Part shown: one piece after another, positions 6,033 through 20,769 of the stretch
Position numbering within the stretch: the first letter of the stretch is position 1
How the letters are laid out: each line of letters opens with the position of its first letter
Virus record (IMG/VR): IMGVR_UViG_3300029318_000037
Span: 1 to 35,731 of that record
Direction: 5' to 3' (one strand)
Length of the DNA: 35,731 nucleotides
DNA from: a virus
Taxonomy: Duplodnaviria > Caudoviricetes
Notes under the pieces: generated by a model
Told to the model about the DNA's origin: nothing
Databases searched by the model: none
The model's input: the letters and a program-made list of their open reading frames with translations, nothing else
Made by a program: the position numbers and the translations under genes

Positions 6033-6481
6033 TGAAAGCAACTGTAAAAATAAATCAAAGCGACTTAAACAACTTAAACAAAAAAATAGCTTTTTTTAAG
6101 GGGTTTGATAAAAATGTTTTATCTACTGAATTAGCAAGAACTGCTATGGATATTGCAAGGGAAGCTAAAAAAAATGTTGCAAGAAATGCTAATGATACTG
6201 GTGCTTTAAAACAATCTATAACGCCAGTGATAAAAGGTAAAACAGTTTCAGTAGTAGCTAATAAAAAATATGCGCCATACATTGAATTTGGCACTGGTAG
6301 ATTAGTAAGTTTAGATGACATGTTAGAATTAGGAATACCAAGCACATACGCAATGCAATTTAAAGGCAAAGGTTTACGTGAGGTGAATTTACCAGCTAGA
6401 CCATTTTTATTTAGTAGCGCAAGAATAGGTATGCGTAACTTAATAGATAGATTAACAAAAAGAATAGAAAAAATTAGATAA
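6032..6481 (+). CDS. HK97 gp10-family neck protein
   Basis: Motifs DTGALKQSI, YAPYIEFGT and PARPFL. Confidence 0.88.
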   Translation: MKATVKINQSDLNNLNKKIAFFKGFDKNVLSTELARTAMDIAREAKKNVARNANDTGALKQSITPVIKGKTVSVVANKKYAPYIEFGTGRLVSLDDMLELGIPSTYAMQFKGKGLREVNLPARPFLFSSARIGMRNLIDRLTKRIEKIR

Positions 6482-6918
6482 TGTTAGAGGCAATACATTT
6501 TGTGCGTAAAGCAATTATTACAAAATTAACAAACAATGTTAGTATTGATTCAGCTAACGTGCCTGTTTATGGGCGTGTTCCAAATAACGCATCTTATCCA
6601 TATATAAGAATTTATTCAGTTTCTAATAATGAAATAGACCAAAACGCAACACAATTTAACATGGAAACTATTACCAGAATAGAATGCGTAGCAAGATACG
6701 TTTCTGACGATGGTGGTGAATTTGACGTTAATTCAATGGTTTCACAATGTTTAAATTTATTAAGAACAAGATCATCAAATTATATAAATCTATCATCCGA
6801 TGGGTTTACCGTTTATACAAGTACAAATGACGGTGTGACTTATTTTGAAGATGATTTAACAGATCATACATACTATAGAGGTATAATAGAATTATCAAAC
6901 CGTATAACACAAAATTAA
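6481..6918 (+). CDS. Tail completion / terminator protein (DUF3168-like)
   Basis: Motif VYGRVP.NASYPYI; position after gp10-like gene. Confidence 0.75.
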   Translation: MLEAIHFVRKAIITKLTNNVSIDSANVPVYGRVPNNASYPYIRIYSVSNNEIDQNATQFNMETITRIECVARYVSDDGGEFDVNSMVSQCLNLLRTRSSNYINLSSDGFTVYTSTNDGVTYFEDDLTDHTYYRGIIELSNRITQN

Positions 6919-6919
6919 A

Positions 6920-7222
6920 ATGGCACAAAAATTAAGTGAAGAAACAGAAGTAAAATTAGATTTAAAAACAATAGGTATTATTGTAGGTGGCGCTATAAGT
7001 TTAGCAAGTATGTATTTTGCTTTAAAATCTGATATTGCAATGGCAAAAGAATTACCAGAACCAGAAGTTTCTAAAATCGAATGGTCTTATAAGGATGAAT
7101 TGGTGCGATCAGAAATTAGTAATACAAATGAAAAAGTAGAAGGTTTGGAAAAATCTGTTGGTGAAATTAAAGAACAATTAAATAAAATTGATGAGAGATT
7201 ATATCAAATATCAAAAAAATAA
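6920..7222 (+). CDS. Single-TM protein with C-terminal coiled coil
   Basis: TM segment TIGIIVGGAISLASMYFAL; heptad pattern VEGLEKSVGEIKEQLNKIDERL. Confidence 0.75.
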   Translation: MAQKLSEETEVKLDLKTIGIIVGGAISLASMYFALKSDIAMAKELPEPEVSKIEWSYKDELVRSEISNTNEKVEGLEKSVGEIKEQLNKIDERLYQISKK

Positions 7223-7225
7223 TAA

Positions 7226-7561
7226 ATGAAAAAATTATGTGTAACAATTGCATTTTTGGTGACTTTTGTGAGTTTTGCTCAAAATAAAGATGACATTACT
7301 GTTATTTATTACAGTGCTAAATTTATACCAGATGTAGATTTATCAGATTATAATGATTATAATTTGCAAAAATTTTATATAGATAAAAACCCTGAAATTT
7401 TATCTGAGGAAAAAATTAAATATTTACCAACCATTATTTTGTATAATGATGGTGAACAAATATTAAAAATAGAAAGTGATATTAGTTTAAAATTAAAACC
7501 TGAAAATTGGATAGATATTTTGCAAGAACATATAGAGGAGTTGTTATCGCAACGCTTTTAA
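7226..7561 (+). CDS. Exported thioredoxin-like fold protein lacking CxxC
   Basis: Signal peptide ending SFA|Q; VIYYSAKF and KIKYLPTIILYNDGE resemble the thioredoxin beta strand and cis-Pro loop. Confidence 0.6.
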   Translation: MKKLCVTIAFLVTFVSFAQNKDDITVIYYSAKFIPDVDLSDYNDYNLQKFYIDKNPEILSEEKIKYLPTIILYNDGEQILKIESDISLKLKPENWIDILQEHIEELLSQRF

Positions 7562-7914
7562 CTTGTAATGTATATAGTCAATTTGAATCAGATAAATTAA
7601 GTCATTTTTTAGGTGGTTATTCTAGTGGCGCATTTGCCTATGAATATACTTATCAAAAAACTAACAATAAAAAAAAGGCGTTTGTAAGCGGTTTGTTAGG
7701 TTCTTTAATTGTTGGGTCAGCAAAAGAATTTCACGACAGCAGACAGCTTAATAATAGCTTTGACAAAAACGATTTACTCGCTACTTTTACTGGTGGCATA
7801 ATAGTAAGTTTGACTTTTAACATTTTAAAAAAAAATAAAAATGAAAAAATACATAACAATCTTGTTCGCAATTATCGTAAGTATAAACGTAAACGCGCAA
7901 GAAAAAAAAGATAA
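7507..7914 (+). CDS. Membrane protein, YfiM/DUF2279-like
   Basis: Motif set DK..HF..G, G..KE..D and DL.A...G with hydrophobic helices; highly basic C-tail. Confidence 0.65.
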   Translation: MDRYFARTYRGVVIATLLTCNVYSQFESDKLSHFLGGYSSGAFAYEYTYQKTNNKKKAFVSGLLGSLIVGSAKEFHDSRQLNNSFDKNDLLATFTGGIIVSLTFNILKKNKNEKIHNNLVRNYRKYKRKRARKKR

Positions 7915-8941
7915 TATTTTTAAGAAAATATTTAAATATGCTACACCTTACGTAAGTTACTCACAATCAAATAGTTTGCAAGGCATACAAACATTTTACG
8001 TGACACAACAATCAGAATTAATAGAAACTACTGTAAAAAATCCAGAAAACTTTGCATTTAACTTTGGTCTGCGTAAACTAGCTAGATTTGGATATGAAGA
8101 AAGAGTTAATTTTTACGATGGTAATGAATCTAAAAATGTTACACAAAATTCTAACGTAGGAAGTGTTGACGGATTAGAATATTTATTTAACGTTTCAAAT
8201 GGTCGCCAACAAGGTGTAGAGTTTATAAACAGACAATATTTTATTAGATACGTTGCTAAAAATTATATAATAAAAGCAGAACATTTAAAAAATGAAATTG
8301 TAGATATTGAATACAATTCATTAGACGTAAGATTTAAATTACCGATAGGTAAAAGATTAAGTTTTGCTGTAGGTGCAATTGCGCGTACAAACCCAGTAGC
8401 TTATGGTCATAACCCGATACAAAAGTATTTTGATGAAGGCAATAATTGGTGGGATTTAAGTTATGCTATAGGCCACACTGATCAACTATTTGAAATGACT
8501 GATGTTAGCACTGGTGAATTTTTAGGTTATGATTATTTATGGTTTGATCAAAATGGCGTTCAAATAAGTTCGTCAGACGAAGATTATAGACGATTGCATT
8601 TTGGTAATATTGTTAATCAATTTAACGCCAATGAACTTGCGCAAATAGGTGACTTTACTTATTTATCAGCAATAGCATCATTAGATTACTATTTCTACAG
8701 AAAAAACATTTGGATTCATGGTTTTATAAACGCATTACCGTATCATAAATTGTTAGACGGTGATGAAAGATATTCTTATGATAATTTTATTGGTGATGAC
8801 AAATGGTTAGATGTTCAGGGTGGTATTATATTTGGCTTTCGTATAAACAAATGGTTTGGGTTATTTAGTGAATATAATTACCAATCATATTGGGGCAAAG
8901 AATTACAAAGTATTAAAACAGGTATAAACATTAGATTATGA
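7841..8941 (+). CDS. Putative outer-membrane beta-barrel protein
   Basis: Signal peptide ending VNA|Q; many amphipathic aromatic-rich strands (FAFNFGLRK, SLDVRFKL, SLDYYFY, GIIFGFRI); C-terminal strand KTGINIRL. Confidence 0.6.
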   Translation: MKKYITILFAIIVSINVNAQEKKDNIFKKIFKYATPYVSYSQSNSLQGIQTFYVTQQSELIETTVKNPENFAFNFGLRKLARFGYEERVNFYDGNESKNVTQNSNVGSVDGLEYLFNVSNGRQQGVEFINRQYFIRYVAKNYIIKAEHLKNEIVDIEYNSLDVRFKLPIGKRLSFAVGAIARTNPVAYGHNPIQKYFDEGNNWWDLSYAIGHTDQLFEMTDVSTGEFLGYDYLWFDQNGVQISSSDEDYRRLHFGNIVNQFNANELAQIGDFTYLSAIASLDYYFYRKNIWIHGFINALPYHKLLDGDERYSYDNFIGDDKWLDVQGGIIFGFRINKWFGLFSEYNYQSYWGKELQSIKTGINIRL

Positions 8942-9069
8942 TAGAATACATAAAGCATGCAACAGGTTTATGTGGTGAGCCACATGTAAGTTTATTATTA
9001 ATTTTATTTGTTTATATAATAATTAATTTTAGGTATAATAAAATAAAAAAATATGACAAAGAATTTTAG
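8938..9069 (+). CDS. Small membrane peptide (43 aa; not in ORF track)
   Basis: MIEYIKHATGLCGEPHVSLLLILFVYIIINFRYNKIKKYDKEF; ATGA overlap with the barrel gene and overlap with the endolysin start. Confidence 0.55.
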   Translation: MIEYIKHATGLCGEPHVSLLLILFVYIIINFRYNKIKKYDKEF

Positions 9070-9436
9070 CAAATCAGAATTTGAATCAAAGTGTGGTTGC
9101 GAAATGCCAGATGAGGTTTATGTAAATGTTGTAAAAGTAGCAAATCAACTACAATATTTAAGAGGTGAAATAGGAAAGCCAATAAGAGTAAATAGCGCAT
9201 ATAGAAGCCCAGAACACAATGCAAAAGTAGGCGGTGTATCTAAGTCACAACATTTATTAGGTAAAGCTGCGGATATAGCTGTAAAAGGAATGGCGACTGA
9301 TGTACTATATCAATATATAGAAGATGCAATTAGTAATGGTGAAATGTTACAAGGTGGATTAGGTTTATACGATACGTTTGTACATTATGATATAAGAGGC
9401 ACAAAAGCAAGATGGGACTACAGAAAAAATAAATAA
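9053..9436 (+). CDS. Endolysin, peptidase M15A family
   Basis: Motifs NSAYRSPEHNAKVGG..KSQHLLGKAADI and FVHYDIRG (Zn ligands H, D, H). Confidence 0.92.
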   Translation: MTKNFSKSEFESKCGCEMPDEVYVNVVKVANQLQYLRGEIGKPIRVNSAYRSPEHNAKVGGVSKSQHLLGKAADIAVKGMATDVLYQYIEDAISNGEMLQGGLGLYDTFVHYDIRGTKARWDYRKNK

Positions 9437-9438
9437 TT

Positions 9439-9897
9439 ATGAGTAAAAAAAGTTTTAAAGATAGTACTGTTGGTAAAATTATTTTAGGCGCTGCAACAAT
9501 GATAAATCCAACATTAGGTAACGTGTTACAAGGTGTTACAAGTCCAAAAGAGGCGCTAGCTGAAATTAGTAAATCTGGCATTTCTGTTGACGATAAAATT
9601 AAATTACAGCAAATGATATACGATCAACAAAACAAAGAAATGGAAGCTGTTACAGCGCGTTGGCAAGCAGACACTGGGGTAAATTCTGGTTGGCTTAGTA
9701 AAAACGTAAGACCACTAATTTTAATTTGGTGCATTGTAATATTTAGTTTTGCTGGTATTTTAGATAGTATTGAAGGCATTCCATTTCAAATTAATTCTTT
9801 ATGGAATGATACATTTGAAAAAGTTATGATGGCTACAGTTTTAGCATATTTTGGTGGACGTACAAGTGAAAAAGCAATTAACAGTTTTAAAAAATAA
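9439..9897 (+). CDS. Holin (3TM/GTA-holin-like)
   Basis: Motifs RWQAD..SGWLSKNVRPL and AYFGGRT.EK with TM segments; adjacent to endolysin. Confidence 0.8.
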   Translation: MSKKSFKDSTVGKIILGAATMINPTLGNVLQGVTSPKEALAEISKSGISVDDKIKLQQMIYDQQNKEMEAVTARWQADTGVNSGWLSKNVRPLILIWCIVIFSFAGILDSIEGIPFQINSLWNDTFEKVMMATVLAYFGGRTSEKAINSFKK

Positions 9898-10028
9898 TGG
9901 CAAAAAGAAGCAAGCAAATTAACCCAATACAATACAGAAAAACGCCAAAAAAAAGACCAGGCATACATTCTAAAAACAAATCACAATCACAACGAAAAAA
10001 GAAGTATCGCGGACAAGGTAAACATTGA
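9897..10028 (+). CDS. Small highly basic peptide (43 aa; not in ORF track)
   Basis: MAKRSKQINPIQYRKTPKKRPGIHSKNKSQSQRKKKYRGQGKH; TAATG coupling to holin; stops just before the fibre promoter. Confidence 0.7.
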   Translation: MAKRSKQINPIQYRKTPKKRPGIHSKNKSQSQRKKKYRGQGKH

Positions 10029-10062: not shown

Positions 10063-13000
10063 ATGGCTACACTTACAGGAACTAAAATTAAAGATACTTA
10101 TGATGGTCTGTTAAAAGTATCAGACAATGTAGGTCTAAATTCTACAAAAAAAATAATTACTGACGGATTAGGTAATAATTCGAGTGTTAAAATATCTACA
10201 AGTGATTTTGAGGTTGGTGGTTTTTTCTACGTAGATATTGACGGTAATTTACCTGATTCTAAAATTGGTATTGGTACTAGTTCACCAAGTGAAACTTTAC
10301 ACGTAGTTGGTGACTTCCGTTTAACAGCAAGATTTTATGACGGTAGCAATTCAGCTGGTTTATCAGGACGTGTTCTTATGTCAACTGGAACAGCAACTAG
10401 TTGGTCAAACACCTTTACAACATCAATGACTTTTGATGCTGGCGTTATTATAAACGCTGGTATAAAAGATTATGCTGGATCAACTGGTACTGCTGGTCAG
10501 GTATTAAGTTCAACTGGTTCATCAGATGTTGAATGGGTTTCGCTTTCAGAAATACAGGGCGTTGACGGTTCTGGTACGGCTAATTATATTCCGATATGGA
10601 CAGATTCTGATACGTTAGGTAATTCAGTTATATATCAATCTAGTTCTAATATTGGTATTGGTACGCTTTCACCTGGCTCTTATAAACTTCATGTATTTGG
10701 TGATTTTAAATTAAATTCTAATGGCAGTGGTTATATACAATCTGATTACGGTGATCACAGAATTTCAATATATGATTCAAGTAATAATGAAGTTATTCAA
10801 TTTAAAGATTTGGACGGTAGTTCAGCTAATCAATTAGTAGTTGCGTCAACTGGTGTTGGTATAAACGTAGCTAATCCAAGTGAAAAATTACATGTATCAG
10901 GTAGTGCTAATGGAAATGTAAAAGTATTAATACAAAATAATAATACAGGAACTCACGCCTATGCTACCTTAGGATTTCAAAGTAATCAAAATCATTCAGT
11001 TCAACCAGCATTATTTTTAAACGGTTCTAATAATACTAATTATGCGGGTGCAAACTCATTGAATATGTATCAGCATGGTAATTTTCCTTTAGGATTTGTT
11101 ACGAGTAATTTAATAAGAATGACAGTTGCTGGTGATGGTGCCGTTGGAATAGGAAATACTTCGCCTAGTTATAAATTATCTGTGTCAGACGATACAGATG
11201 GTTCAGTAAACATTTTTCAGTTAAGAAATGGTGATGCTACTTATTCACAATCATTTAGTTATGTTCTTGATACTTCTAAAAACCTAGTAATTACAGGTGC
11301 TTCTGGTGCTGGTGGAATAAGATATAATGTAGGAACTAATGGCTTTACAATAGCTGGTGGTTCTGTCGGAATCGGAACTACTTCGCCTAGTTCAGGTTTG
11401 CATTTATCAGGTGGCGACAATACAAAATCAAAATTTACCTTAACAAATACAGCACCACTTATAGACAACAGCTGGTCAATAAATCCAACCAATGGCACAA
11501 ATTTAAGTTTAAATCAAGGTATAAGTAACAGAGTTACATTTATTGGTGGTGGTCAGCTTCAACTTAACGCATACGGATCAGGTACTTTTACTGGTACTAC
11601 AACACAAAGATTAGGAGTTGATTCGTCTGGTAATGTAATTGAAATACCTATAGGAAGTGGCCCAGTTGACGGTAGTGGTTCTGCAAATAAAGTAGCAATT
11701 TGGTCTGATGCAGATACATTAACAAGTGATTCTAATTTGCACTGGGATAGCACTAATGATAGATTAGGCGTTGGTTTAAGCAATCCTAGTTACACAATAC
11801 ATATACCTGACGGAAGCAGTAACGCAAATCCTGATCATGCAATAGCCATAGGTAATGATGCTGATATAAAACTTTACCGCCACAGTAATACTGGCGTTAA
11901 CGTAATTGAGGGTGATGGTCATTTAAATATAAGAACTAATACAATAACATTTCAAAATCAAGCTGGAACAGAAACTTTATTTAAAGGCGTTGCTGATGGT
12001 GCGTTTGAGGCATATTATAATAACTCTAAAGAATTAGAAACTATAAGTCAAGGTGTTAACATTAGGGTAAAATCTATTATTCCTAGTGCTGGTAACACAA
12101 ACGGTGGTTATTGGTTATACGGTACTCATGCACATGGTTTTGTGTCTAATAGTAATGGTGATTTAAGAATTTTAGGGTTAACACCAGGTGGTCAAAAAGA
12201 AGTTTTAAGAAGCTACATAACAACCGCTAGCAGATTAGTTATTGACGGTAATAATTATTATAACGTTGGTATTGGAACAGGTACACCAAGTGAAAAGTTG
12301 CACGTAAGTGGTAACATAAAAGGAACTGGTAATGCTTTTTTTGGTTCAGGTGGTACTGGGACAACAGATGCTATTGTTAGTATTGACGGTGGTAGTGGAA
12401 CAGGTGGCGAAGCATATTTAAGATTGATGAGAGGTGGTTCTTCAGGATTTATTTTAAATCACACTGCAAATGAAATACAAGTTAGAGCTACTGCTAATAT
12501 ACCTATGTTCTTTTATACAAACGACACTATTGGTATAAAACTTAACGCTAACAGTTCTGTAACTTTTTCAGAATATGGGTCTGGTACATTTACAGGCACT
12601 GCAACACAACGATTAGCTGTTGATTCTAGTGGTAATATTATAGAAGTACCTATTGGTAGTGGTGCTGTTGATGGAAGTGGTACTACTGGCTTTATAACTA
12701 AATGGACTGATGGTGATACTATTGGTGATAGTATATTAGAAGTAAACAGCGCTTTGCCAAGTGATGTTTTAATGCCACAATACATAAGACATGCTGGTGA
12801 TACTAATACTTATTTTGGCTTTTATGACAATGATACTTTTTTATTAGCAACAAATAATAATGAAAGAATGCGTGTTACTGACGCTGGTAATGTAGGCATT
12901 GGAACTACTTCGCCTAGTGAAAAATTAGAAGTTGTAGGTAATATTATGGCAAACGTATCTAATACTGGTGGTTTTATGCTTACAGCTAATTCTGCTAGTG

Positions 13001-16000
13001 GTTTAGTAAGAAATAACGCTACTGGACTTGCTTTAAGAACAAACACTACTGATCGATTGATTATAGACAATTCTGGTGATGCAAGTTTTACTGGTGCTGT
13101 AACAGTTGAAGGTGGTATATTACATTTAGGCAAAGCAGATACATCATCTGGTCATATTAACGCTAAAGAGTTAATGACGTTTAACATTGACACAGACAAT
13201 GATGACACTAACAGATATTTTGGTTGGTATACTAATGGTGAATCAGCTAGTGGTAGTGAGTTAATGAGATTAACAGAAGCTGGGTATTTAGGCATAGGTA
13301 CTACAACGCCTAATAGATTACTTACTGTGGGTGGCACTTCACAATTTAATGATACAGCATATTTTGCAAATAGAGGTTTAATATCTTGGGGTTCTATGGG
13401 TGGAGGCACTGGTTTTGGTATTAGGGCTGAAAGTGGTAATGCATTAAGTTTAGGGGCTAATGGTACTTGGGACTATTTAATAATTGATACAAGTGGCAAT
13501 GTCGGAATAGGGTCAAGTTCGCCTGGTGAAAGATTACAGTTACAAGTTAATGATGACACTTTTAATGACATTAACATTTTAAATATAAAAAGGGTTTGGT
13601 CAACCGCATCAACTTCAGACAGATCGCATGGAATAAAATTTAGTGATTACAATTCTACAAACGCACTTATATATGTTGATAGAACTAATTCTGCCACTAA
13701 TTACAATAGTGATTTGTTATTTTTAACAAATTCAGGTTCAAGTGGTACAAATTTATCAACTAAAATGATTATTACTAGTGGTGGTAGCATAGGTGTCGGT
13801 ACTTCTAGCCCCAATGTTAAATTTGAAATTTCAGACGCTACTAGTCCAATTTTAAGGTTGCATAATACAACATCAAATGGCGCAAATTCTGGTACTATTC
13901 AATTATACGAATCAAATACTAATTACGGTGCTTACCTTACATATAATGGTGACGCTAATGTTTTTCAAATTGGTACTAGAGTAAACGGCACTAATCATTC
14001 ACGTGTGCAAATAGCTAGAGATACTGGTACTGTTAGGTTTAATGCATACGGTTCTGGCGCTTTTACAGGAACAGCTACACAACGTTTAGCTGTTGACAGT
14101 TCTGGTAATATAATCGAAGTAGCTATTGGTTCTGGCGCAGTTGATGGAAGCGGTGCTGCAAACAAGTTAGCAATATGGTCTGACGCTGACACACTTACAA
14201 GCGACACTAACTTGCACTGGGACACAACTAATGACAGATTAGGTATTGGGACTGCTACGCCTAGTGTTTTATTAGACATATTAGGAAGTGGGGAAGAATG
14301 GCTTAGAATAGTTGGGGGAAGTTCAAATATTAATGGGATACGACTTGGAAGTTCAAGTGGTTCAAGACAAAATGTTTTTTACAGAAATAGGAGTAATGAC
14401 TTACTTACTATCAGGGCTGGTATAGATGATTCTGACATACAAATTATTGCTGGTGGAAGCGCAAATGAAATTATGCGATTTGATGGTACTAACTCAAGAG
14501 TAGGTATTGGAACTACTTCGCCAAGTGATAAATTAGAAATTGCTGGTCTTACTAACTACACAGGCCTAACATTAAAAGGAACAGGCGCGTCAAGACCAGC
14601 GCTTACATTTAAAAACGTAAATCAAAGTTATTTAGGTGCTATTTATGGAACAGAAAGTAATAGTTTAATTTTTGAATCAGGTGGGGACGGCACAACTGGT
14701 GTTGTAGCTATGACAATTAAATCTGACGGCAAAGTTGGAATCGGTACTACTTCGCCTTCTAGTACATTAACTGTTGATGGTACAGTTGAAGTACAAAACA
14801 ATGCACTTTCTTTAAGAGATACTAGTAGCAATCTACAAATAAAAATACAACCTAGTGTTGGTGGTAATGGCAGAATAATGGCTCACAATACTAACATGGG
14901 TACAAACCAAAATTTAGATATAAAAGCTACACAAATAGATTTATATTCTGGTTCAATTTCAGGTAGCGCAAATGTATCTACTCTTTTATTAGATTCATCT
15001 AACAACGCAACTTTTGCTGGTAGTATTGTTATGGGTGGCGCAACATTAGCTAATAGCTATATGATAGAAATGATCCCAACTGGTGGTAATATATTAAGAA
15101 GCACAAGGGGTACTTCAGTTTTTGGTTCTTATCAAGTTACTAATGGCGCTATATATTTAGGTGCTACTTCAAATGATGCTTTAAATATAATTACAAATGA
15201 TACTCCACGTATTCATATCACTAATGGTGGTAATATCGGTATAGGCACTACTTCACCTGTAAACAAACTAGATGTTAATGGTATTATTGCTGTAAATCAG
15301 ACAGCTGGTGGTAATGCTGGTATAAAAATTATTACAAAGAATGATGCTGAAGCATTTTTAATCATGGGTGACCCTGATGACAATTCTATGGGTGGTATTG
15401 CATATAACAACAATACAAATAGTTTATCAATTGATTGTAATAATGCTGAAAGAATTAGTATAAATTCTAGTGGTAACGTAGGTATTGGAACTACTTCACC
15501 ATCACATCTTTTAAGTATTGGCACAGAAGGTAATGCAAGTGGCAAAAAATTAACATTTTATTTAGATGGTTCTGACGGTGATTATGCTGGTATTGGCGCA
15601 CAAAGAGGTGAAACCAATGTTTATTGTTCGTCAGAAATTCGTTTTATAAATGAAAGTAATTCTAGTGGTTCTGGTGCAATGTCATTTAACACTGGATTAA
15701 ACACATTAAATGAAAGAATGCGTATTACTAGTGCTGGCAATATTGGAATTGGAACTACTTCACCTTTAGGTAAGTTAGATATTGTTGGAAACACAGATGA
15801 TAATACTAATTTTTTAACAATTCAAGATAACGATACTTCAGCAAATTCACACAGACCAAGTATAAGGTTTAGATCAAACACAGCTCAAATTGGACAAATT
15901 GTAGGTTTAAATGCTGGAATGAGATTTTCTGTAGGTGCTGGAGAAACTTCATTTTTAGAGATTAGAAATACTGGAAATATAGGTATCGGTACTACCGCAC

Positions 16001-19000
16001 CAGTAGGTAAACTACAAGTTGTTGATGGTGATATTAGGGTAACAACATCAAGTTCATTTTCAAATTTAATAAGTAGTAGGGCAGCAAACCCAAATGCTAA
16101 CGGTTATAATTTAGGTGGGTTGTTATTTCAAGCGTATTCTACTATGACTAATTACACAACTGGTGCTGCTATATACGCGTATGCCGATGGGGCTGCATGG
16201 ACATCTAGTAGCGTACCATCATATTTATCATTTCACACTGCATCAAGTGGTTCTGCAACTACAACAGAAAAAATGGTAATAAAAAATGATGGCAAAGTTG
16301 GAATAGGAACTACTTCGCCAGAATCTACGCTTGATATTAGAGGTTCAGGTGGTTATTTACAATTAACTAGTACAGCTGCAGTTGGTTCAATAAAATCTGA
16401 TTATAATTTACAATTATTTGCAGACCCTGAAGACGACAATAGTAGTGGTTACCAAAATATTCAGTTTTTTACAGCTGGTTCAAATGAAAGAATGAGGGTT
16501 GGCTATAACGGTAATATTGGAATAGGGACTACTGCGCCAATAACTAAAACTCACATTAAAGGTAATGGGCTTACTGTTGAAGAATCTTCTGCGGGCAGAA
16601 AGATACAAATTATTGCGCCAGTTTCAGGAGTAGATTCAAAGATACGAACTAATGCAACTAGTGCTGGATTTATATTTCAAAACAACCCAAGTGGTGATGG
16701 TTCTACATTTGTAGATTTAATGGCAATAGGCAGTTCAGGCGTTACAACTTTCACTGGTAAAATAGATATAAATTTAAGTTCTGAGGGAACTTATTTTGTT
16801 GGTGGTTCTGGCGGTTTAAGAAGATTATCAATTACTAGTGGCACAAACACTTCTGCTGGCGCTTTACATACTTTTAATATCGCATCAAGTAATGGTAAAT
16901 ATAAATTTGATATTAATGGAACTGAAAAATTTTCATTAGATAGTACAACTGCTACTTTTGCTGGTAACGTAACAACAACTGGTGTTGCTTATACTGATTA
17001 TGTACAAACAAGAAGTGGTACTTCTATTGATTTTAGGCATCAAGATGCATCAGTTATTATGAGAATTGATACTGATGATGCAAGAGTTGGTATTGGAACA
17101 ACTTCGCCTACTTCTAAATTAGATGTTAAATCTAGTGGGTCAAATATTGACGAAATATCTTTAACACATTCAGGTAACACAGTAAAAATAGCTTCTCTTG
17201 GTCAAGAATCAGGACACGGAAGTTTAGTGTTACGAAATAACAGTGGCACAATACAAACTAGGTTAAGTGCTGGTGGCAATAATTCTTATATTTTAAATTC
17301 TAATTTGGGAATAGGAACTAGTTCACCAACTGGTAAACTTAATATAGTTCAATCATCAACAACAGACCCAGCATTAAGATTAACTGATGACGGAGTAGCA
17401 AGTTATGATTTTACGTTTCCAGACACATCAACTATTCAATTAGGGACAAACACAACAAGCGATAAAACTTTTAAATTAGTAAATGCTGGTAGTGGTAATT
17501 TAAATATTTCAGTTGATAACGCAACTTTAAAATCTACTGCGCCTGAACTTTTATTTTCTGAAACTGGTAGTGGCACTTCTAATAGAATATATGCTGATGG
17601 TGGCAATTTACATATTGATATAGACAATACAGCTAACGATAGTGGCAATTTAAAATTATTACATCAAGGGACACAATTTGCAGTGTTTAAAGGCAGTACA
17701 GGTGCTTTAGGTATTGGAACTACTAGTCCAGCCACTAAATTAGACGTAGTAGGTAGTGCAACTTTTACAGGCACAGTAACTGCTGGCTCTTATTTTCTTG
17801 GGGATGATGCTTCAATCTCATTAGCAACCACGGGTTCAGGAACTGTATTTTTAAGACCTAATGGACAAACTACATCAGGTCAAATGAAAGTTGAATCAGA
17901 TGGAAACGCAACTATTGCTGGGGACGTGATTATGTCAAAATCTGCTGGACCGACATTAAACATGAATACTAATACAGCGGGTAATACTTCAAAAATTTTA
18001 TTACACGAAGGTACTACTGCAAGCCCCGCAAATGGTGCATCTATAAGATATGACGGCTCTGCTAATACATTTAAAATTGGTGTTGGTGCAAATGTAAATA
18101 CAACAAGATTAACAATAGACAGAGCAACTGGACTTGCGACTTTTGCAAATAATGTAACTTTATATTCAAGGTTAACTTTTGATTATGGTGGTGATCATTA
18201 CCTTGAAGCTGGTACAAATAGTTTAGCTTATAAAAATTCTAGTGGTGCTGTTGTAATGACGCTTAATGCTAGCACAAAAGATGTAAGTTTTGCATCAAAC
18301 ATACAAGTTTATGGTTGGATAAAAGGTGCAAGTGATACAAATACACTTTATTCTGCTACAAGTTTAGGAACTTATTTGCAATCTCCAACAAATAGTGGAA
18401 CAGGTGGTAATATATATTTTAGAAATTTTAGTGGTACAGTTTTTCAAACATTTAGTCAAGTAGATGGTAGTGCAACTTTTACTGGTGACATAACTATTGA
18501 CGACAGTAATGCCACGTTAAATTTATTATCAGGCATAAATGGTAATAGTACAATTAATTTTGGTGATCCAGCAGACAACAATCCAGGCCAAATAATATAT
18601 AGACATAATGGTAACAGCATGTCATTTGATACAGCTGATAATGAGCGTATGCGTATTGATATGAATGGTAATATTGGCGTAAATACAACATCGCCAGGTG
18701 TAAAATTTGACGTAATACATTCTGACACTGGCGCTGGTTATAGTGATGGGGTCGCAAGATTTCACAATAATACATCTAGCGTAATGGGTGGCGCTGCTGT
18801 TTTAAATGTTCGTAATTCTTATAATGCTGGGTTTGGAGGGTTAATAAAATTTTGGTCAACAAGCATTATGTCTAGTGTTGGTAATATTTCATTTAACAGT
18901 GATAGAACAGCTGTAAATTATAACACTACATCAGATTATAGATTAAAAGAAGATTATAAAGATTTTAACGGATTAGACATAACATCTAAAATTAAAGTTT

Positions 19001-19221
19001 ACGACTTTAAATGGAAAAATAAGGATCACAGAAGTTATGGTGTAATAGCGCATGAATTAAATGATGTAGTGCCTAGCGCGGTAACAGGTGAAAAAGATGG
19101 TCAGGATATGCAAGCTGTTGACTATTCTAAATTAGTTCCGTTATTGTTAAAATCTGTACAAGAATTAAAAGAAGAAAACCTTGCTTTAAAAGCTAGAGTA
19201 AACGCACTAGAAAAAAATTAA
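10063..19221 (+). CDS. Giant modular tail fibre (3052 aa) with C-terminal intramolecular chaperone (peptidase S74)
   Basis: About 24 G(N/K)VGIGTxxP linkers; G/S/T/N-rich beta sequence; C-terminal TSDYRLKED...GVIAHEL...VDYSKLVPLLLKSVQEL. Confidence 0.92.
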   Translation: MATLTGTKIKDTYDGLLKVSDNVGLNSTKKIITDGLGNNSSVKISTSDFEVGGFFYVDIDGNLPDSKIGIGTSSPSETLHVVGDFRLTARFYDGSNSAGLSGRVLMSTGTATSWSNTFTTSMTFDAGVIINAGIKDYAGSTGTAGQVLSSTGSSDVEWVSLSEIQGVDGSGTANYIPIWTDSDTLGNSVIYQSSSNIGIGTLSPGSYKLHVFGDFKLNSNGSGYIQSDYGDHRISIYDSSNNEVIQFKDLDGSSANQLVVASTGVGINVANPSEKLHVSGSANGNVKVLIQNNNTGTHAYATLGFQSNQNHSVQPALFLNGSNNTNYAGANSLNMYQHGNFPLGFVTSNLIRMTVAGDGAVGIGNTSPSYKLSVSDDTDGSVNIFQLRNGDATYSQSFSYVLDTSKNLVITGASGAGGIRYNVGTNGFTIAGGSVGIGTTSPSSGLHLSGGDNTKSKFTLTNTAPLIDNSWSINPTNGTNLSLNQGISNRVTFIGGGQLQLNAYGSGTFTGTTTQRLGVDSSGNVIEIPIGSGPVDGSGSANKVAIWSDADTLTSDSNLHWDSTNDRLGVGLSNPSYTIHIPDGSSNANPDHAIAIGNDADIKLYRHSNTGVNVIEGDGHLNIRTNTITFQNQAGTETLFKGVADGAFEAYYNNSKELETISQGVNIRVKSIIPSAGNTNGGYWLYGTHAHGFVSNSNGDLRILGLTPGGQKEVLRSYITTASRLVIDGNNYYNVGIGTGTPSEKLHVSGNIKGTGNAFFGSGGTGTTDAIVSIDGGSGTGGEAYLRLMRGGSSGFILNHTANEIQVRATANIPMFFYTNDTIGIKLNANSSVTFSEYGSGTFTGTATQRLAVDSSGNIIEVPIGSGAVDGSGTTGFITKWTDGDTIGDSILEVNSALPSDVLMPQYIRHAGDTNTYFGFYDNDTFLLATNNNERMRVTDAGNVGIGTTSPSEKLEVVGNIMANVSNTGGFMLTANSASGLVRNNATGLALRTNTTDRLIIDNSGDASFTGAVTVEGGILHLGKADTSSGHINAKELMTFNIDTDNDDTNRYFGWYTNGESASGSELMRLTEAGYLGIGTTTPNRLLTVGGTSQFNDTAYFANRGLISWGSMGGGTGFGIRAESGNALSLGANGTWDYLIIDTSGNVGIGSSSPGERLQLQVNDDTFNDINILNIKRVWSTASTSDRSHGIKFSDYNSTNALIYVDRTNSATNYNSDLLFLTNSGSSGTNLSTKMIITSGGSIGVGTSSPNVKFEISDATSPILRLHNTTSNGANSGTIQLYESNTNYGAYLTYNGDANVFQIGTRVNGTNHSRVQIARDTGTVRFNAYGSGAFTGTATQRLAVDSSGNIIEVAIGSGAVDGSGAANKLAIWSDADTLTSDTNLHWDTTNDRLGIGTATPSVLLDILGSGEEWLRIVGGSSNINGIRLGSSSGSRQNVFYRNRSNDLLTIRAGIDDSDIQIIAGGSANEIMRFDGTNSRVGIGTTSPSDKLEIAGLTNYTGLTLKGTGASRPALTFKNVNQSYLGAIYGTESNSLIFESGGDGTTGVVAMTIKSDGKVGIGTTSPSSTLTVDGTVEVQNNALSLRDTSSNLQIKIQPSVGGNGRIMAHNTNMGTNQNLDIKATQIDLYSGSISGSANVSTLLLDSSNNATFAGSIVMGGATLANSYMIEMIPTGGNILRSTRGTSVFGSYQVTNGAIYLGATSNDALNIITNDTPRIHITNGGNIGIGTTSPVNKLDVNGIIAVNQTAGGNAGIKIITKNDAEAFLIMGDPDDNSMGGIAYNNNTNSLSIDCNNAERISINSSGNVGIGTTSPSHLLSIGTEGNASGKKLTFYLDGSDGDYAGIGAQRGETNVYCSSEIRFINESNSSGSGAMSFNTGLNTLNERMRITSAGNIGIGTTSPLGKLDIVGNTDDNTNFLTIQDNDTSANSHRPSIRFRSNTAQIGQIVGLNAGMRFSVGAGETSFLEIRNTGNIGIGTTAPVGKLQVVDGDIRVTTSSSFSNLISSRAANPNANGYNLGGLLFQAYSTMTNYTTGAAIYAYADGAAWTSSSVPSYLSFHTASSGSATTTEKMVIKNDGKVGIGTTSPESTLDIRGSGGYLQLTSTAAVGSIKSDYNLQLFADPEDDNSSGYQNIQFFTAGSNERMRVGYNGNIGIGTTAPITKTHIKGNGLTVEESSAGRKIQIIAPVSGVDSKIRTNATSAGFIFQNNPSGDGSTFVDLMAIGSSGVTTFTGKIDINLSSEGTYFVGGSGGLRRLSITSGTNTSAGALHTFNIASSNGKYKFDINGTEKFSLDSTTATFAGNVTTTGVAYTDYVQTRSGTSIDFRHQDASVIMRIDTDDARVGIGTTSPTSKLDVKSSGSNIDEISLTHSGNTVKIASLGQESGHGSLVLRNNSGTIQTRLSAGGNNSYILNSNLGIGTSSPTGKLNIVQSSTTDPALRLTDDGVASYDFTFPDTSTIQLGTNTTSDKTFKLVNAGSGNLNISVDNATLKSTAPELLFSETGSGTSNRIYADGGNLHIDIDNTANDSGNLKLLHQGTQFAVFKGSTGALGIGTTSPATKLDVVGSATFTGTVTAGSYFLGDDASISLATTGSGTVFLRPNGQTTSGQMKVESDGNATIAGDVIMSKSAGPTLNMNTNTAGNTSKILLHEGTTASPANGASIRYDGSANTFKIGVGANVNTTRLTIDRATGLATFANNVTLYSRLTFDYGGDHYLEAGTNSLAYKNSSGAVVMTLNASTKDVSFASNIQVYGWIKGASDTNTLYSATSLGTYLQSPTNSGTGGNIYFRNFSGTVFQTFSQVDGSATFTGDITIDDSNATLNLLSGINGNSTINFGDPADNNPGQIIYRHNGNSMSFDTADNERMRIDMNGNIGVNTTSPGVKFDVIHSDTGAGYSDGVARFHNNTSSVMGGAAVLNVRNSYNAGFGGLIKFWSTSIMSSVGNISFNSDRTAVNYNTTSDYRLKEDYKDFNGLDITSKIKVYDFKWKNKDHRSYGVIAHELNDVVPSAVTGEKDGQDMQAVDYSKLVPLLLKSVQELKEENLALKARVNALEKN
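11566..11775 (+). repeat. Internal fibre module, copy 1 (AYGSGTFTG..TQRL.VDSSGN.IE..IGSG.VDGSG...LHWD.TNDRLG)
   Basis: Near-identical protein copy at ~14041-14250 and a partial copy at ~12571-12730. Confidence 0.85.
14041..14250 (+). repeat. Internal fibre module, copy 3
   Basis: Aligns without gaps to 11566-11775 at protein level. Confidence 0.85.
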
Positions 19222-19605: not shown

Positions 19606-19845
19606 ATGGCACAATTAGAAGAACAAGAGTTCGAGAAATTAAAACAACAAGAAGCTAGTAAAAATGCAATATTATTTGATATTGGTGCAATGGCTACACA
19701 AACTAAAAAACTACATAAAGCGTTTGAAAATCTGGAAAATGATATGCAAACCTTTCGTGAAGAATTAGTAGCTAAGTACGGTAAAATTAACGTTGATTTA
19801 AAAGACGGTTCATTTGAATTAGTTGAAGAAGAAGTTAAAGAGTAA
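19606..19845 (+). CDS. Hypothetical coiled-coil protein
   Basis: Helical body ending KYGKINVDLKDG; coupled to the next gene. Confidence 0.7.
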   Translation: MAQLEEQEFEKLKQQEASKNAILFDIGAMATQTKKLHKAFENLENDMQTFREELVAKYGKINVDLKDGSFELVEEEVKE

Positions 19846-20312
19846 TGGCATTAATTAATGGAACATCTTTTGCGTTGTTTCATAATGGTAATATTCTAGG
19901 ACATTCTACTGAAACTAAATTTAAATTAAATGTTGATTTACCTGAATCTACAACAAAAGCGTCAGCTGGCTTTCAAGAAGTTATAGCTGGTGTGCGTTCT
20001 GGCACAATAACTGCTTCAGCATTAACAGATTACAGTGATACTTTAAATTTTGAGCAATTAGCTGACATGGTTTTAACGCGTCAGCAAAGTGAGTTTATAT
20101 TTGAACAATCTGCATTTGAGGGTTTATTTTTAACTGGTAACGGCATTATTATTAATGTAGATGAAATTGCTGAATCTGAAAATGTTGTTAGTTTTGACGT
20201 AGAAATACAGCTTACTGGATTATTTAGTTTGCAAGATGAATCAAGTGGTAGATATTGGAATACAACAGATGTTTTTTGGGAAAATGCTAACTTTGAATGG
20301 CAACTTGCATAA
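19845..20312 (+). CDS. Tail tube protein paralog A with Trp-rich C-terminal extension
   Basis: Shares NGT, LGH.T, DLPE.TTK.S.GFQEVIAGV.SG and DYSD with 20362-20769. Confidence 0.8.
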   Translation: MALINGTSFALFHNGNILGHSTETKFKLNVDLPESTTKASAGFQEVIAGVRSGTITASALTDYSDTLNFEQLADMVLTRQQSEFIFEQSAFEGLFLTGNGIIINVDEIAESENVVSFDVEIQLTGLFSLQDESSGRYWNTTDVFWENANFEWQLA

Positions 20313-20361: not shown

Positions 20362-20769
20362 ATGGCTACAACATCAGTATTTAATGGAACTAATTTACTT
20401 TTAAAGATTGAAACTGTAACACTAGGACACACAACTAGTTGTTCACTCACATTATCTAATGACTTACCAGAGGCAACAACAAAAAATTCAAACGGATTTC
20501 AAGAGGTTATTGCTGGTGTTATAAGTGGTGAAATTTCTTTTGAAGGATTGGTTGATTATAGTGATAGTGCTAACGCAATACAAATGGCGGATTATTTATT
20601 GGCTAGAACTCAATTGACATGTGTTTTTGGAACTGCTGAAACTGGTGATGCTGTATATACAGCTGAAGGGTTTTTAAGTTCTTTGGAGCAGTCAGCTGAA
20701 ATGGAAAGTCCAGTATCTTATTCAGGATCAATTACGTTAACTGGCGCGATTACAAAATCAACTAACTAA
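20362..20769 (+). CDS. Major tail tube protein (TP901-1-like family), paralog B
   Basis: Motifs TSCSLTLSND, G.LSSLEQSA and VSYSGSITLTG; followed by chaperones and tape measure. Confidence 0.88.
   Translation: MATTSVFNGTNLLLKIETVTLGHTTSCSLTLSNDLPEATTKNSNGFQEVIAGVISGEISFEGLVDYSDSANAIQMADYLLARTQLTCVFGTAETGDAVYTAEGFLSSLEQSAEMESPVSYSGSITLTGAITKSTN

Follow-up and report, generated by a model that had tools for sequence, protein, structure and literature searches.

A lysis-linked two-gene core and a lineage-dependent, virus-only predicted outer-membrane barrel in phages of probable Bacteroidota hosts

Among the described systems for the outer-membrane step of phage lysis, the two-component spanins are among the closest to the locus studied here. 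In the cited part of the spanin survey (PMC6139136), lambda Rz comprises an N-in transmembrane (TM) segment and two helical parts joined by a linker, and 91 of 677 phages, including Croceibacter and Bacteroides phages, are counted as lacking spanins. The present module may bear on how such spaninless phages breach the outer membrane. Phages also encode beta-barrel outer-membrane proteins, of which Lom of lambda is an example. A survey of huge phages, in its cited part, describes 1,603 phage barrels, 12-stranded ones included, near envelope genes (10.64898/2026.10.24.761521); a further preprint is related as far as its cited part goes (10.1101/2025.11.12.688109). We analyzed a viral stretch of 35,731 bases, the whole of IMG/VR record IMGVR_UViG_3300029318_000037 (hereafter the window), in which five coupled genes, g1 to g5, lie between the tail terminator and the endolysin. 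The original prediction took all five as one cell-envelope system, with a probable outer-membrane barrel, attached to the lysis cassette. The analysis revealed a real and conserved module, undescribed in the literature searched, consisting of a two-gene core, g1–g2, and a lineage-dependent, virus-only barrel, g4. Our best guess for its role is outer-membrane disruption: g1–g2, together with the barrel where present, may form a lipoprotein-free, spanin-like bridge for this step of lysis, a reading that is quite possible and that we hold tentatively.

The core genes g1 (6920–7222, 100 residues) and g2 (7226–7561, 111 residues) are adjacent, with g1 directly upstream of g2 at 220/220 g2 hits with room (not deduplicated). 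Other counts at barrel-bearing loci refer to 81 representatives deduplicated at 88% barrel identity (38 near-clade and 43 far-clade), 61 of which have 2.5 kb of downstream room. A lysis gene, either endolysin or holin, is located within 3 kb of g2 in 28/28 near-clade and 27/33 far-clade representatives with room. The near clade (82 loci) has the order g1–g2–(g3)–barrel–(g5)–endolysin–holin, with differing upstream genes and endolysins; the endolysin type is exchanged among relatives for amidase or other M15 types. In the distant clade the barrel comes first, followed by g1–g2 at 0–5 kb downstream and then the lysis genes; these barrels are 39–81% identical to P0132 and ~30–36% to the window barrel. 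A third group, from phages of 47–110 kb, also keeps the barrel and g1–g2 together, and in three of the loci read the module sits beside the endolysin with the holin far off. The carriers of the module have unrelated tails, genomes of ~30 to 110 kb, and different endolysin types and gene orders. The predicted co-occurrence across very divergent phages and the link to the lysis genes were both borne out in these IMG/VR loci.

Signal peptides and TM segments were assigned by eye and with hydropathy scripts. The predicted layout of g1 comprises a short N-terminal tail, one TM segment, a short helix, a Pro hinge (99/114 representatives) and a coiled coil, giving ~65 periplasmic residues; this is the predicted topology of an i-spanin, namely a type II inner-membrane protein with a periplasmic coiled coil. 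Basic residues (K/R) precede the TM segment in 98/114 representatives and follow it in 25/114, and alignment A2 contains a 7-residue (heptad) indel within the coil. The TM segment is rich in small residues, with GxxxG in 47/114. Profile matches of g1 are weak: phrog_1296 "holin" in 18/34 members (best 6.9e-5), phrog_10340 holin/antiholin in 4/34, and XhlA-like families. In the regions of L249:6459 and L231:9814, a g1-like protein with another linker and no adjacent g2 stands beside a holin or endolysin.

The second core protein, g2 (576 homologs), has a thioredoxin fold supported by PF00085, which is matched weakly, as is TIGR01068, and exceeds the cut-off in far homologs. The predicted lack of a CxxC motif held throughout (0/82 with CxxC), so that the active site of redox thioredoxin and Dsb proteins is missing; the cis-Pro position is retained. 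Pro68 is invariant, and Phe111 and Gln19 are kept in at least 90% of the 82 rows. A C-terminal [KR]F characterizes g2 in barrel-linked lineages: [KRQ][FY] occurs near the C-terminus in 143/146 unique g2 sequences from barrel loci, 2 of the other 3 end in F, and Phe111 stays at least 90% conserved in barrel-linked g2 across ~20% identity. The Atlas neighbours of g2 are viral. A fusion search gave one longer form of g2, a g2/g3 chimera, which does not qualify as Rosetta-stone evidence.

The third main component, g4 (7841–8941, 366 residues), was anticipated to be a barrel, and structural analysis bore this out. AlphaFold2 models contain 12 long strands, with a predicted local distance difference test score (pLDDT) of 80 from one alignment and 86 from a more diverse one. 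The top Foldseek matches are NanC, EspP and NalP; all top fold matches are membrane barrels, CymA and KdgM/GalP among them, with OMPLA and LpxR lower. In VIA-align several barrels are tied at Z 9–11.5 and none stands out (root-mean-square deviation 4–6 Å, identity at most ~12% for the top matches); therefore, the matches settle the fold but not the family. Among Pfam and NCBIfam, no match of g4 to the NanC/KdgM, autotransporter, OMPLA or LpxR families was obtained, Pfam gave no meaningful match in 82 g4 members, and the PDB held no sequence relative. The signal peptide, the even strand number and the C-terminal strand are those of outer-membrane beta-barrels, and a beta-signal-like last strand of the form G-x-N-x-x-hydrophobic recurs in 79/82 barrels. 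A soluble or virion protein was ruled out by the signal peptide and the predicted barrel fold.

Two loops of g4 are conspicuous, their sidedness being deduced from strand order. Residues 80–110 form a long, conserved periplasm-side loop (R78, K79, A81, F83, Y85, Y92, G94 and E96, with R78 and K79 just before it) that is partly unordered in the monomer models (pLDDT <50 at 83–90 and 94–97), whereas residues 185–271 form a large helical/hairpin outer loop or domain, acidic and aromatic, in which distant members show DxDxDG-like motifs. A ring of near-invariant basic residues (R78, K79, R136, K145, R164 and K/R166), together with the conserved unordered loop, suggests a partner-binding mouth in the modelled barrel.

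The g4 family comprises 309 homologs (290 representatives at 50% clustering), and an estimated ~1,800 IMG/VR stretches carry the barrel patterns, 543 of 601 checked being confirmed. Its Atlas neighbours are viral. Among 185,579 GTDB species genomes the barrel occurs at 3 loci, namely a 35.8-kb contig almost identical to viral loci, a 976-bp piece, and an endolysin–g1–g2–barrel locus, all of which look like phage contigs in bins. Five barrel matches in a Woesearchaeota-labelled bin (L083, G057) each lie on a contig of their own, and these are likely phage contigs that were grouped into one bin. No cellular homolog turned up in another 400 genomes of the phylum to which a Bacteroidetes bin belongs. 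Judged by these searches, g4 is a large virus-only family for which no true cellular homolog was found. These data bear on whether the barrel could be a solute channel, that is, a NanC/KdgM-like anion pore, or an OMPLA/LpxR-like lipid hydrolase that might itself weaken the outer membrane, in either case apart from g1–g2. The fold matches to NanC, KdgM/GalP and CymA, and lower down to OMPLA and LpxR, point this way, as do conserved inward residues (Arg/Lys plus H293, H302, E113 and E344) and the frequency of transport-linked barrels in huge phages (10.64898/2026.10.24.761521, cited part). However, no structural match stands out, the 400 genomes gave no cellular counterpart of the kind expected for host-derived transport genes, and the barrel travels with g1–g2 across 30% identity. 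We regard such a channel or enzyme as very unlikely; a stand-alone pore, as the original prediction had allowed, was also judged unlikely.

A holin-anchored scan (80 loci) revealed g1–g2 pairs with no barrel. A profile of this g2 type confirmed 144 IMG/VR stretches, of which the best 80 were examined. Here g1 again lies upstream of g2 (73/73 with room, not deduplicated), and a lysis gene is found within 3 kb in 53/64 loci with room. None of the 80 loci contains a barrel, nor did whole-record searches of near-complete barrel-less genomes detect one (0/5, and 0/21 in a second set of 26 records chosen by length); the same profile finds barrels at ~1e-120 in barrel-bearing genomes. None of these 80 g2 proteins ends in F. 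In a g2 tree built without the tails, the barrel-less proteins form one clade (97/81). Because the barrel is absent from this whole clade, the core of the module is g1–g2, and the barrel is a lineage-dependent partner, the third part in several clades; a fixed g1–g2–barrel trio is ruled out. Five loci (L154, L393, L399, L406 and L414) have two g1–g2 pairs in their lysis region, only one of which has the terminal Phe.

Evolutionary distances were also compared. Over 54 loci, g2 and barrel distances correlate with a rho of 0.80; within the near clade the value is 0.45, versus 0.11 for g2 and holin, with 0.24 in the other holin comparison. The near-clade values favour co-inheritance of g2 with the barrel. 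Mutual information between paired g2 and barrel sequences is dominated by phylogeny (effective n ~32) and was not used. Complex prediction of barrel residues 25–366 with g2 residues 19–111 scored 0.00 in two runs, with controls not folded, and weighs neither way. Barrel records lacking g2 yielded none on searching (0/5), all being incomplete or ending near the barrel (G023, 93% complete, ends ~1 kb past it).

The barrel-less pairs also bear on a lysis-timing relay resembling T4 T/RI, in which the single-TM g1 would serve as a holin or as a cofactor of one, the cleaved g2 would regulate lysis from the periplasm in the manner of an antiholin, and the barrel, where present, would sense superinfection or an outside cue at the outer membrane and signal via the C-terminus of g2. 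Such a relay explains the persistence of g1–g2 without a barrel more simply than a bridge does. In its cited part, PMC8385771 describes RI as a cleaved periplasmic protein binding the holin T, and extra lysis cofactors exist, as the cited part of the work on Lcc6 reports (10.1101/2024.01.23.576932); the weak holin-family matches and small-residue-rich TM segment of g1 are in line with this. On the other hand, a separate annotated holin is already present, and one clade has the module next to the endolysin but the holin at a distance. Moreover, under the relay the cationic peptide described below would be the only candidate left for the outer-membrane step. The periplasmic part of T4 T is globular, whereas that of g1 is a coiled coil. 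We therefore consider the relay unlikely, though it deserves serious attention; even if it proved right, the module would represent a virus-encoded, envelope-spanning relay that is still undescribed.

Returning to the spanin-like bridge, we propose a putative model from the observed gene content, linkage, conservation and lipobox absence, combined with predicted folds and topologies. In this model, g1 would be held in the inner membrane with its coiled coil in the periplasm, as an i-spanin-like subunit, and g2 would act as an exported, redox-dead adaptor that binds it. As g2 is exported but not lipidated, the outer-membrane hold must come from elsewhere; such a hold could be provided by the barrel, through its basic periplasm-side mouth, and by the terminal Phe of g2, which co-varies with the barrel. 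In the window lineage, the C-terminal Phe of g2 would dock into the phage's own predicted outer-membrane barrel, and in the barrel-less clade g2 may rely on a host outer-membrane protein. With the wall cleared by holin and endolysin, the bridge would then act on the outer membrane, pulling or disrupting it. The contacts and the role in lysis are what we infer from these data.

This model fits a genome in which, as predicted, no canonical spanin was recognized: three scans found no credible lipobox on either strand of the window, one of them flagging a 40-residue minus-strand frame inside another gene that we read as noise, and the lipoprotein of L077 was recovered as a control. Accordingly, neither an o-spanin-type lipoprotein nor a unimolecular spanin with an N-terminal lipobox and a C-terminal TM segment was found in the window. 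Near the cassette, 11/81 barrel-type representatives were flagged (3 separate lipoproteins, 7 Cys-bearing signal peptides of g2 or barrel, 1 doubtful), and a lipoprotein was found in 5/43 barrel-less representatives. Scanning three compact, near-complete genomes of the barrel-less type brought up no credible membrane or exported protein other than g1, g2 or the holin. A minority of phages (L318:2709, L329:805, L077:7372 and L272:6424) have a Tyr/Trp/Pro-rich lipoprotein in or near the cassette, which could be o-spanin-like or a surface protein. We also searched 12 near-complete holin-bearing genomes, six of them picked because g1–g2 lay near the holin; 3/12 have neither g2 nor barrel. One of these, G034 (L341:4542–6575), encodes a 49-residue lipoprotein just before an amidase-like endolysin and has two TM-coil genes after it, within 2 kb, a possible canonical spanin pair; the other two gave no clear spanin candidate.

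Several observations weigh against the bridge. The expected anticorrelation with spanins proved weak, with the candidate pair of G034 in its favour and the other two genomes not. Periplasmic Cys is found in 0/114 g1 representatives, whereas only ~4% of two-component spanins lack it according to the cited part of PMC6139136, and the first 25 PHROG or Pfam matches of g1 include none to a spanin family. The barrel-less clade keeps g1–g2 in the lysis cassette with no visible outer-membrane anchor, and in L148 a Phe-type g2 is followed directly by the endolysin, with no barrel on a 46%-complete record. Since the barrel-less g2 proteins form one clade, the loss of barrel and terminal Phe counts as a single evolutionary event, and their co-variation is no more than suggestive. 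In addition, near-clade g1 and g2 distances are uncorrelated (rho 0.04), the far-clade barrel–holin correlation (0.66) is as high as that of g2 and barrel (0.61), and no lysis gene was detected within 3 kb in 6/33 far-clade and 11/64 barrel-less loci. Lastly, the cationic 43-residue peptide encoded at 9897–10028 is another candidate for outer-membrane disruption.

A five-gene system, as originally predicted, was not supported: g3 is present in 16/38 near-clade and 1/43 far-clade representatives (17/81), and g5 lies near the barrel in 6/38 and 0/43 (6/81). Given this patchy presence, g3 and g5 are optional passengers of the slot. The YfiM/DUF2279-like small membrane protein g3 (7507–7914, 135 residues) has no ATG; it starts with a conserved TTG at 7507, its signal peptide being read in a different frame from the final codons of g2, which specify the last helix of that protein, and its basic tail overlaps the signal peptide of the barrel. 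It matches phrog_26616 (E 5e-7), NF008028 (E 2e-6, below cut-off) and, weakly, PF10043. The Cys ahead of its cleavage site is not fixed in position from one homolog to the next, and the residue after the site is Gln; with profile matches below cut-off, g3 is at most a candidate YfiM/DUF2279 lipoprotein. In 15/16 g3-bearing representatives the overlap frame is open, TTG-started and hydrophobic (the 16th has a separate g3), whereas in the 22 representatives without g3 it is disrupted by stops or charged residues; the overlap therefore looks to be under selection, judging from frame conservation. Where g3 occurs, the terminal residues and codons of g2 are shifted. As for g5 (8938–9069, 43 residues), a single-TM peptide, its HxxGxCGExH motif recurs in 12 distinct sequences, and its position varies: it lies on either side of the barrel, downstream of the endolysin or of the holin, or kilobases off.

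In relatives the slot also hosts lipoproteins, a Cys-rich exported protein and a second small barrel. The Cys-rich protein directly follows the barrel in the distant clade (L155:9056–9775, L179:8981–9559, L183:7554–8234 and L215:9011–9574) and has an LDL-receptor-A-like motif (PF00057, very weak); its C-terminus presumably resembles type IX secretion signals. The second, small beta-barrel lies after the endolysin at L221:10708–11115 (PF13505, E 1.7e-4). The very basic peptide at 9897–10028 of the window comes after the holin; its motif was met at 77 loci, whether or not a barrel or g2 is there. It is a candidate disruptin-like or nucleic-acid-binding peptide and has no obvious hydrophobic face. 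A slot that gathers such host-surface genes, together with the acidic and aromatic outer loop and DxDxDG-like motifs of the barrel, is compatible with a late envelope modifier that would exclude superinfecting phages or protect the progeny, in which barrel and g2 would block the phage receptor or serve as a decoy for it, or the bridge would stiffen the envelope late in infection. This would leave the coupling of g1–g2 to the lysis genes unexplained. Furthermore, the module moves among phages of ~30 to 110 kb with unrelated tails, and a receptor-specific blocker therefore fits poorly. A late modifier is in our view distinctly unlikely.

The window phage is an HK97-type siphophage with portal, terminase, capsid, neck, tail tube, tape measure and primase-helicase genes on the + strand; no integrase was seen among the window proteins scanned, which took in part of the open reading frames. 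An open reading frame re-check recovered all five genes on the + strand at the coordinates given here. Upstream is the tail terminator (6481–6918, +, phrog_176), and downstream are the endolysin, a peptidase M15 (9053–9436, +, PF08291 E 1.6e-20, phrog_894), and the annotated holin (9439–9897, +, phrog_3427, E 9e-14). From terminator to endolysin, the junctions are a 1-nt gap, a 3-nt gap between g1 and g2, and overlaps of 55, 74, 4 and 17 nt. Right after the lysis cassette, a repetitive tail-fibre-like protein of 3052 residues (10063–19221) separates the head-neck genes from the tail tube genes, the latter including a tandem pair of tail-tube-like genes (19845–20312 and 20362–20769; PF06199, phrog_1407). 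Promoter scans stayed at chance level. The proposed Bacteroidota-type export signature was supported, with Gln after the cleavage site in 80/82 g2 proteins and 70/82 barrels, in keeping with the Q-rule for signal peptidase I substrates in this phylum (PMC5837995, cited part). The host is thus likely, from these signals, a Bacteroidota member, and probably a marine one. Cultured phages gave no match to the barrel, g1 or one barrel-less g2, and the host is therefore only inferred. As far as the cited parts report, Porphyromonas phages encode Q-rule proteins of unknown function (PMC10367356), and annotated spanins are few in isolated flavobacterial phages (PMC8776804).

In summary, this study describes a module that is common in IMG/VR and exists in two natural versions, with and without the barrel and terminal Phe. 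That an i-spanin-like coil connected via a redox-dead periplasmic thioredoxin to a barrel, encoded by the phage in most lineages and taken from the host in the barrel-less clade, constitutes a new class of outer-membrane disruption is possible but less likely than not; if true, this class would be widespread in marine Bacteroidota phages. No description of the cassette was found among the literature matches listed, and the supplementary table of the huge-phage survey might hold members.

Compared with known systems, the module resembles T4 holin T and antiholin RI in topology, namely a single-TM protein and a cleaved periplasmic partner of ~100 residues (PMC8385771, cited part), but differs in the coiled coil of g1, the separate holin and the linked outer-membrane barrel; among the matches shown for the module proteins there is no T or RI family, only weak generic holin matches. 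The phiKT disruptin gp28 (10.1101/515445, cited part) is a precedent for a spaninless outer-membrane step; it is a 56-residue amphipathic peptide rather than a multi-compartment set, and the peptide at 9897–10028 is a separate, weak candidate of that kind. The barrels of huge phages, as the cited part of their survey presents them, are likewise phage-encoded beta-barrels with signal peptides, but are mostly host-related and near transport genes, whereas g4 is virus-only and tied to g1–g2 and lysis in phages of 30–110 kb. With the 12-stranded monomeric barrels (NanC/KdgM, autotransporter translocators, OMPLA and LpxR) g4 shares strand number and general fold, and it differs in its long periplasm-side loop, its helical outer loop and an identity of at most ~12%. 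The two-component spanins, lambda Rz/Rz1 and T4 PseT.3/PseT.2 (PMC6139136, cited part), share with the module a type II inner-membrane coiled coil with a hinge, an adjacent coupled gene for an exported partner, and the position in the lysis cassette. Their partner is a lipoprotein, whereas g2 is a soluble signal-peptidase-I product of thioredoxin fold; ~96% of them have periplasmic Cys for intermolecular disulfides and g1 has none; and the outer-membrane part, where the present module has one, is a predicted integral 12-stranded barrel.

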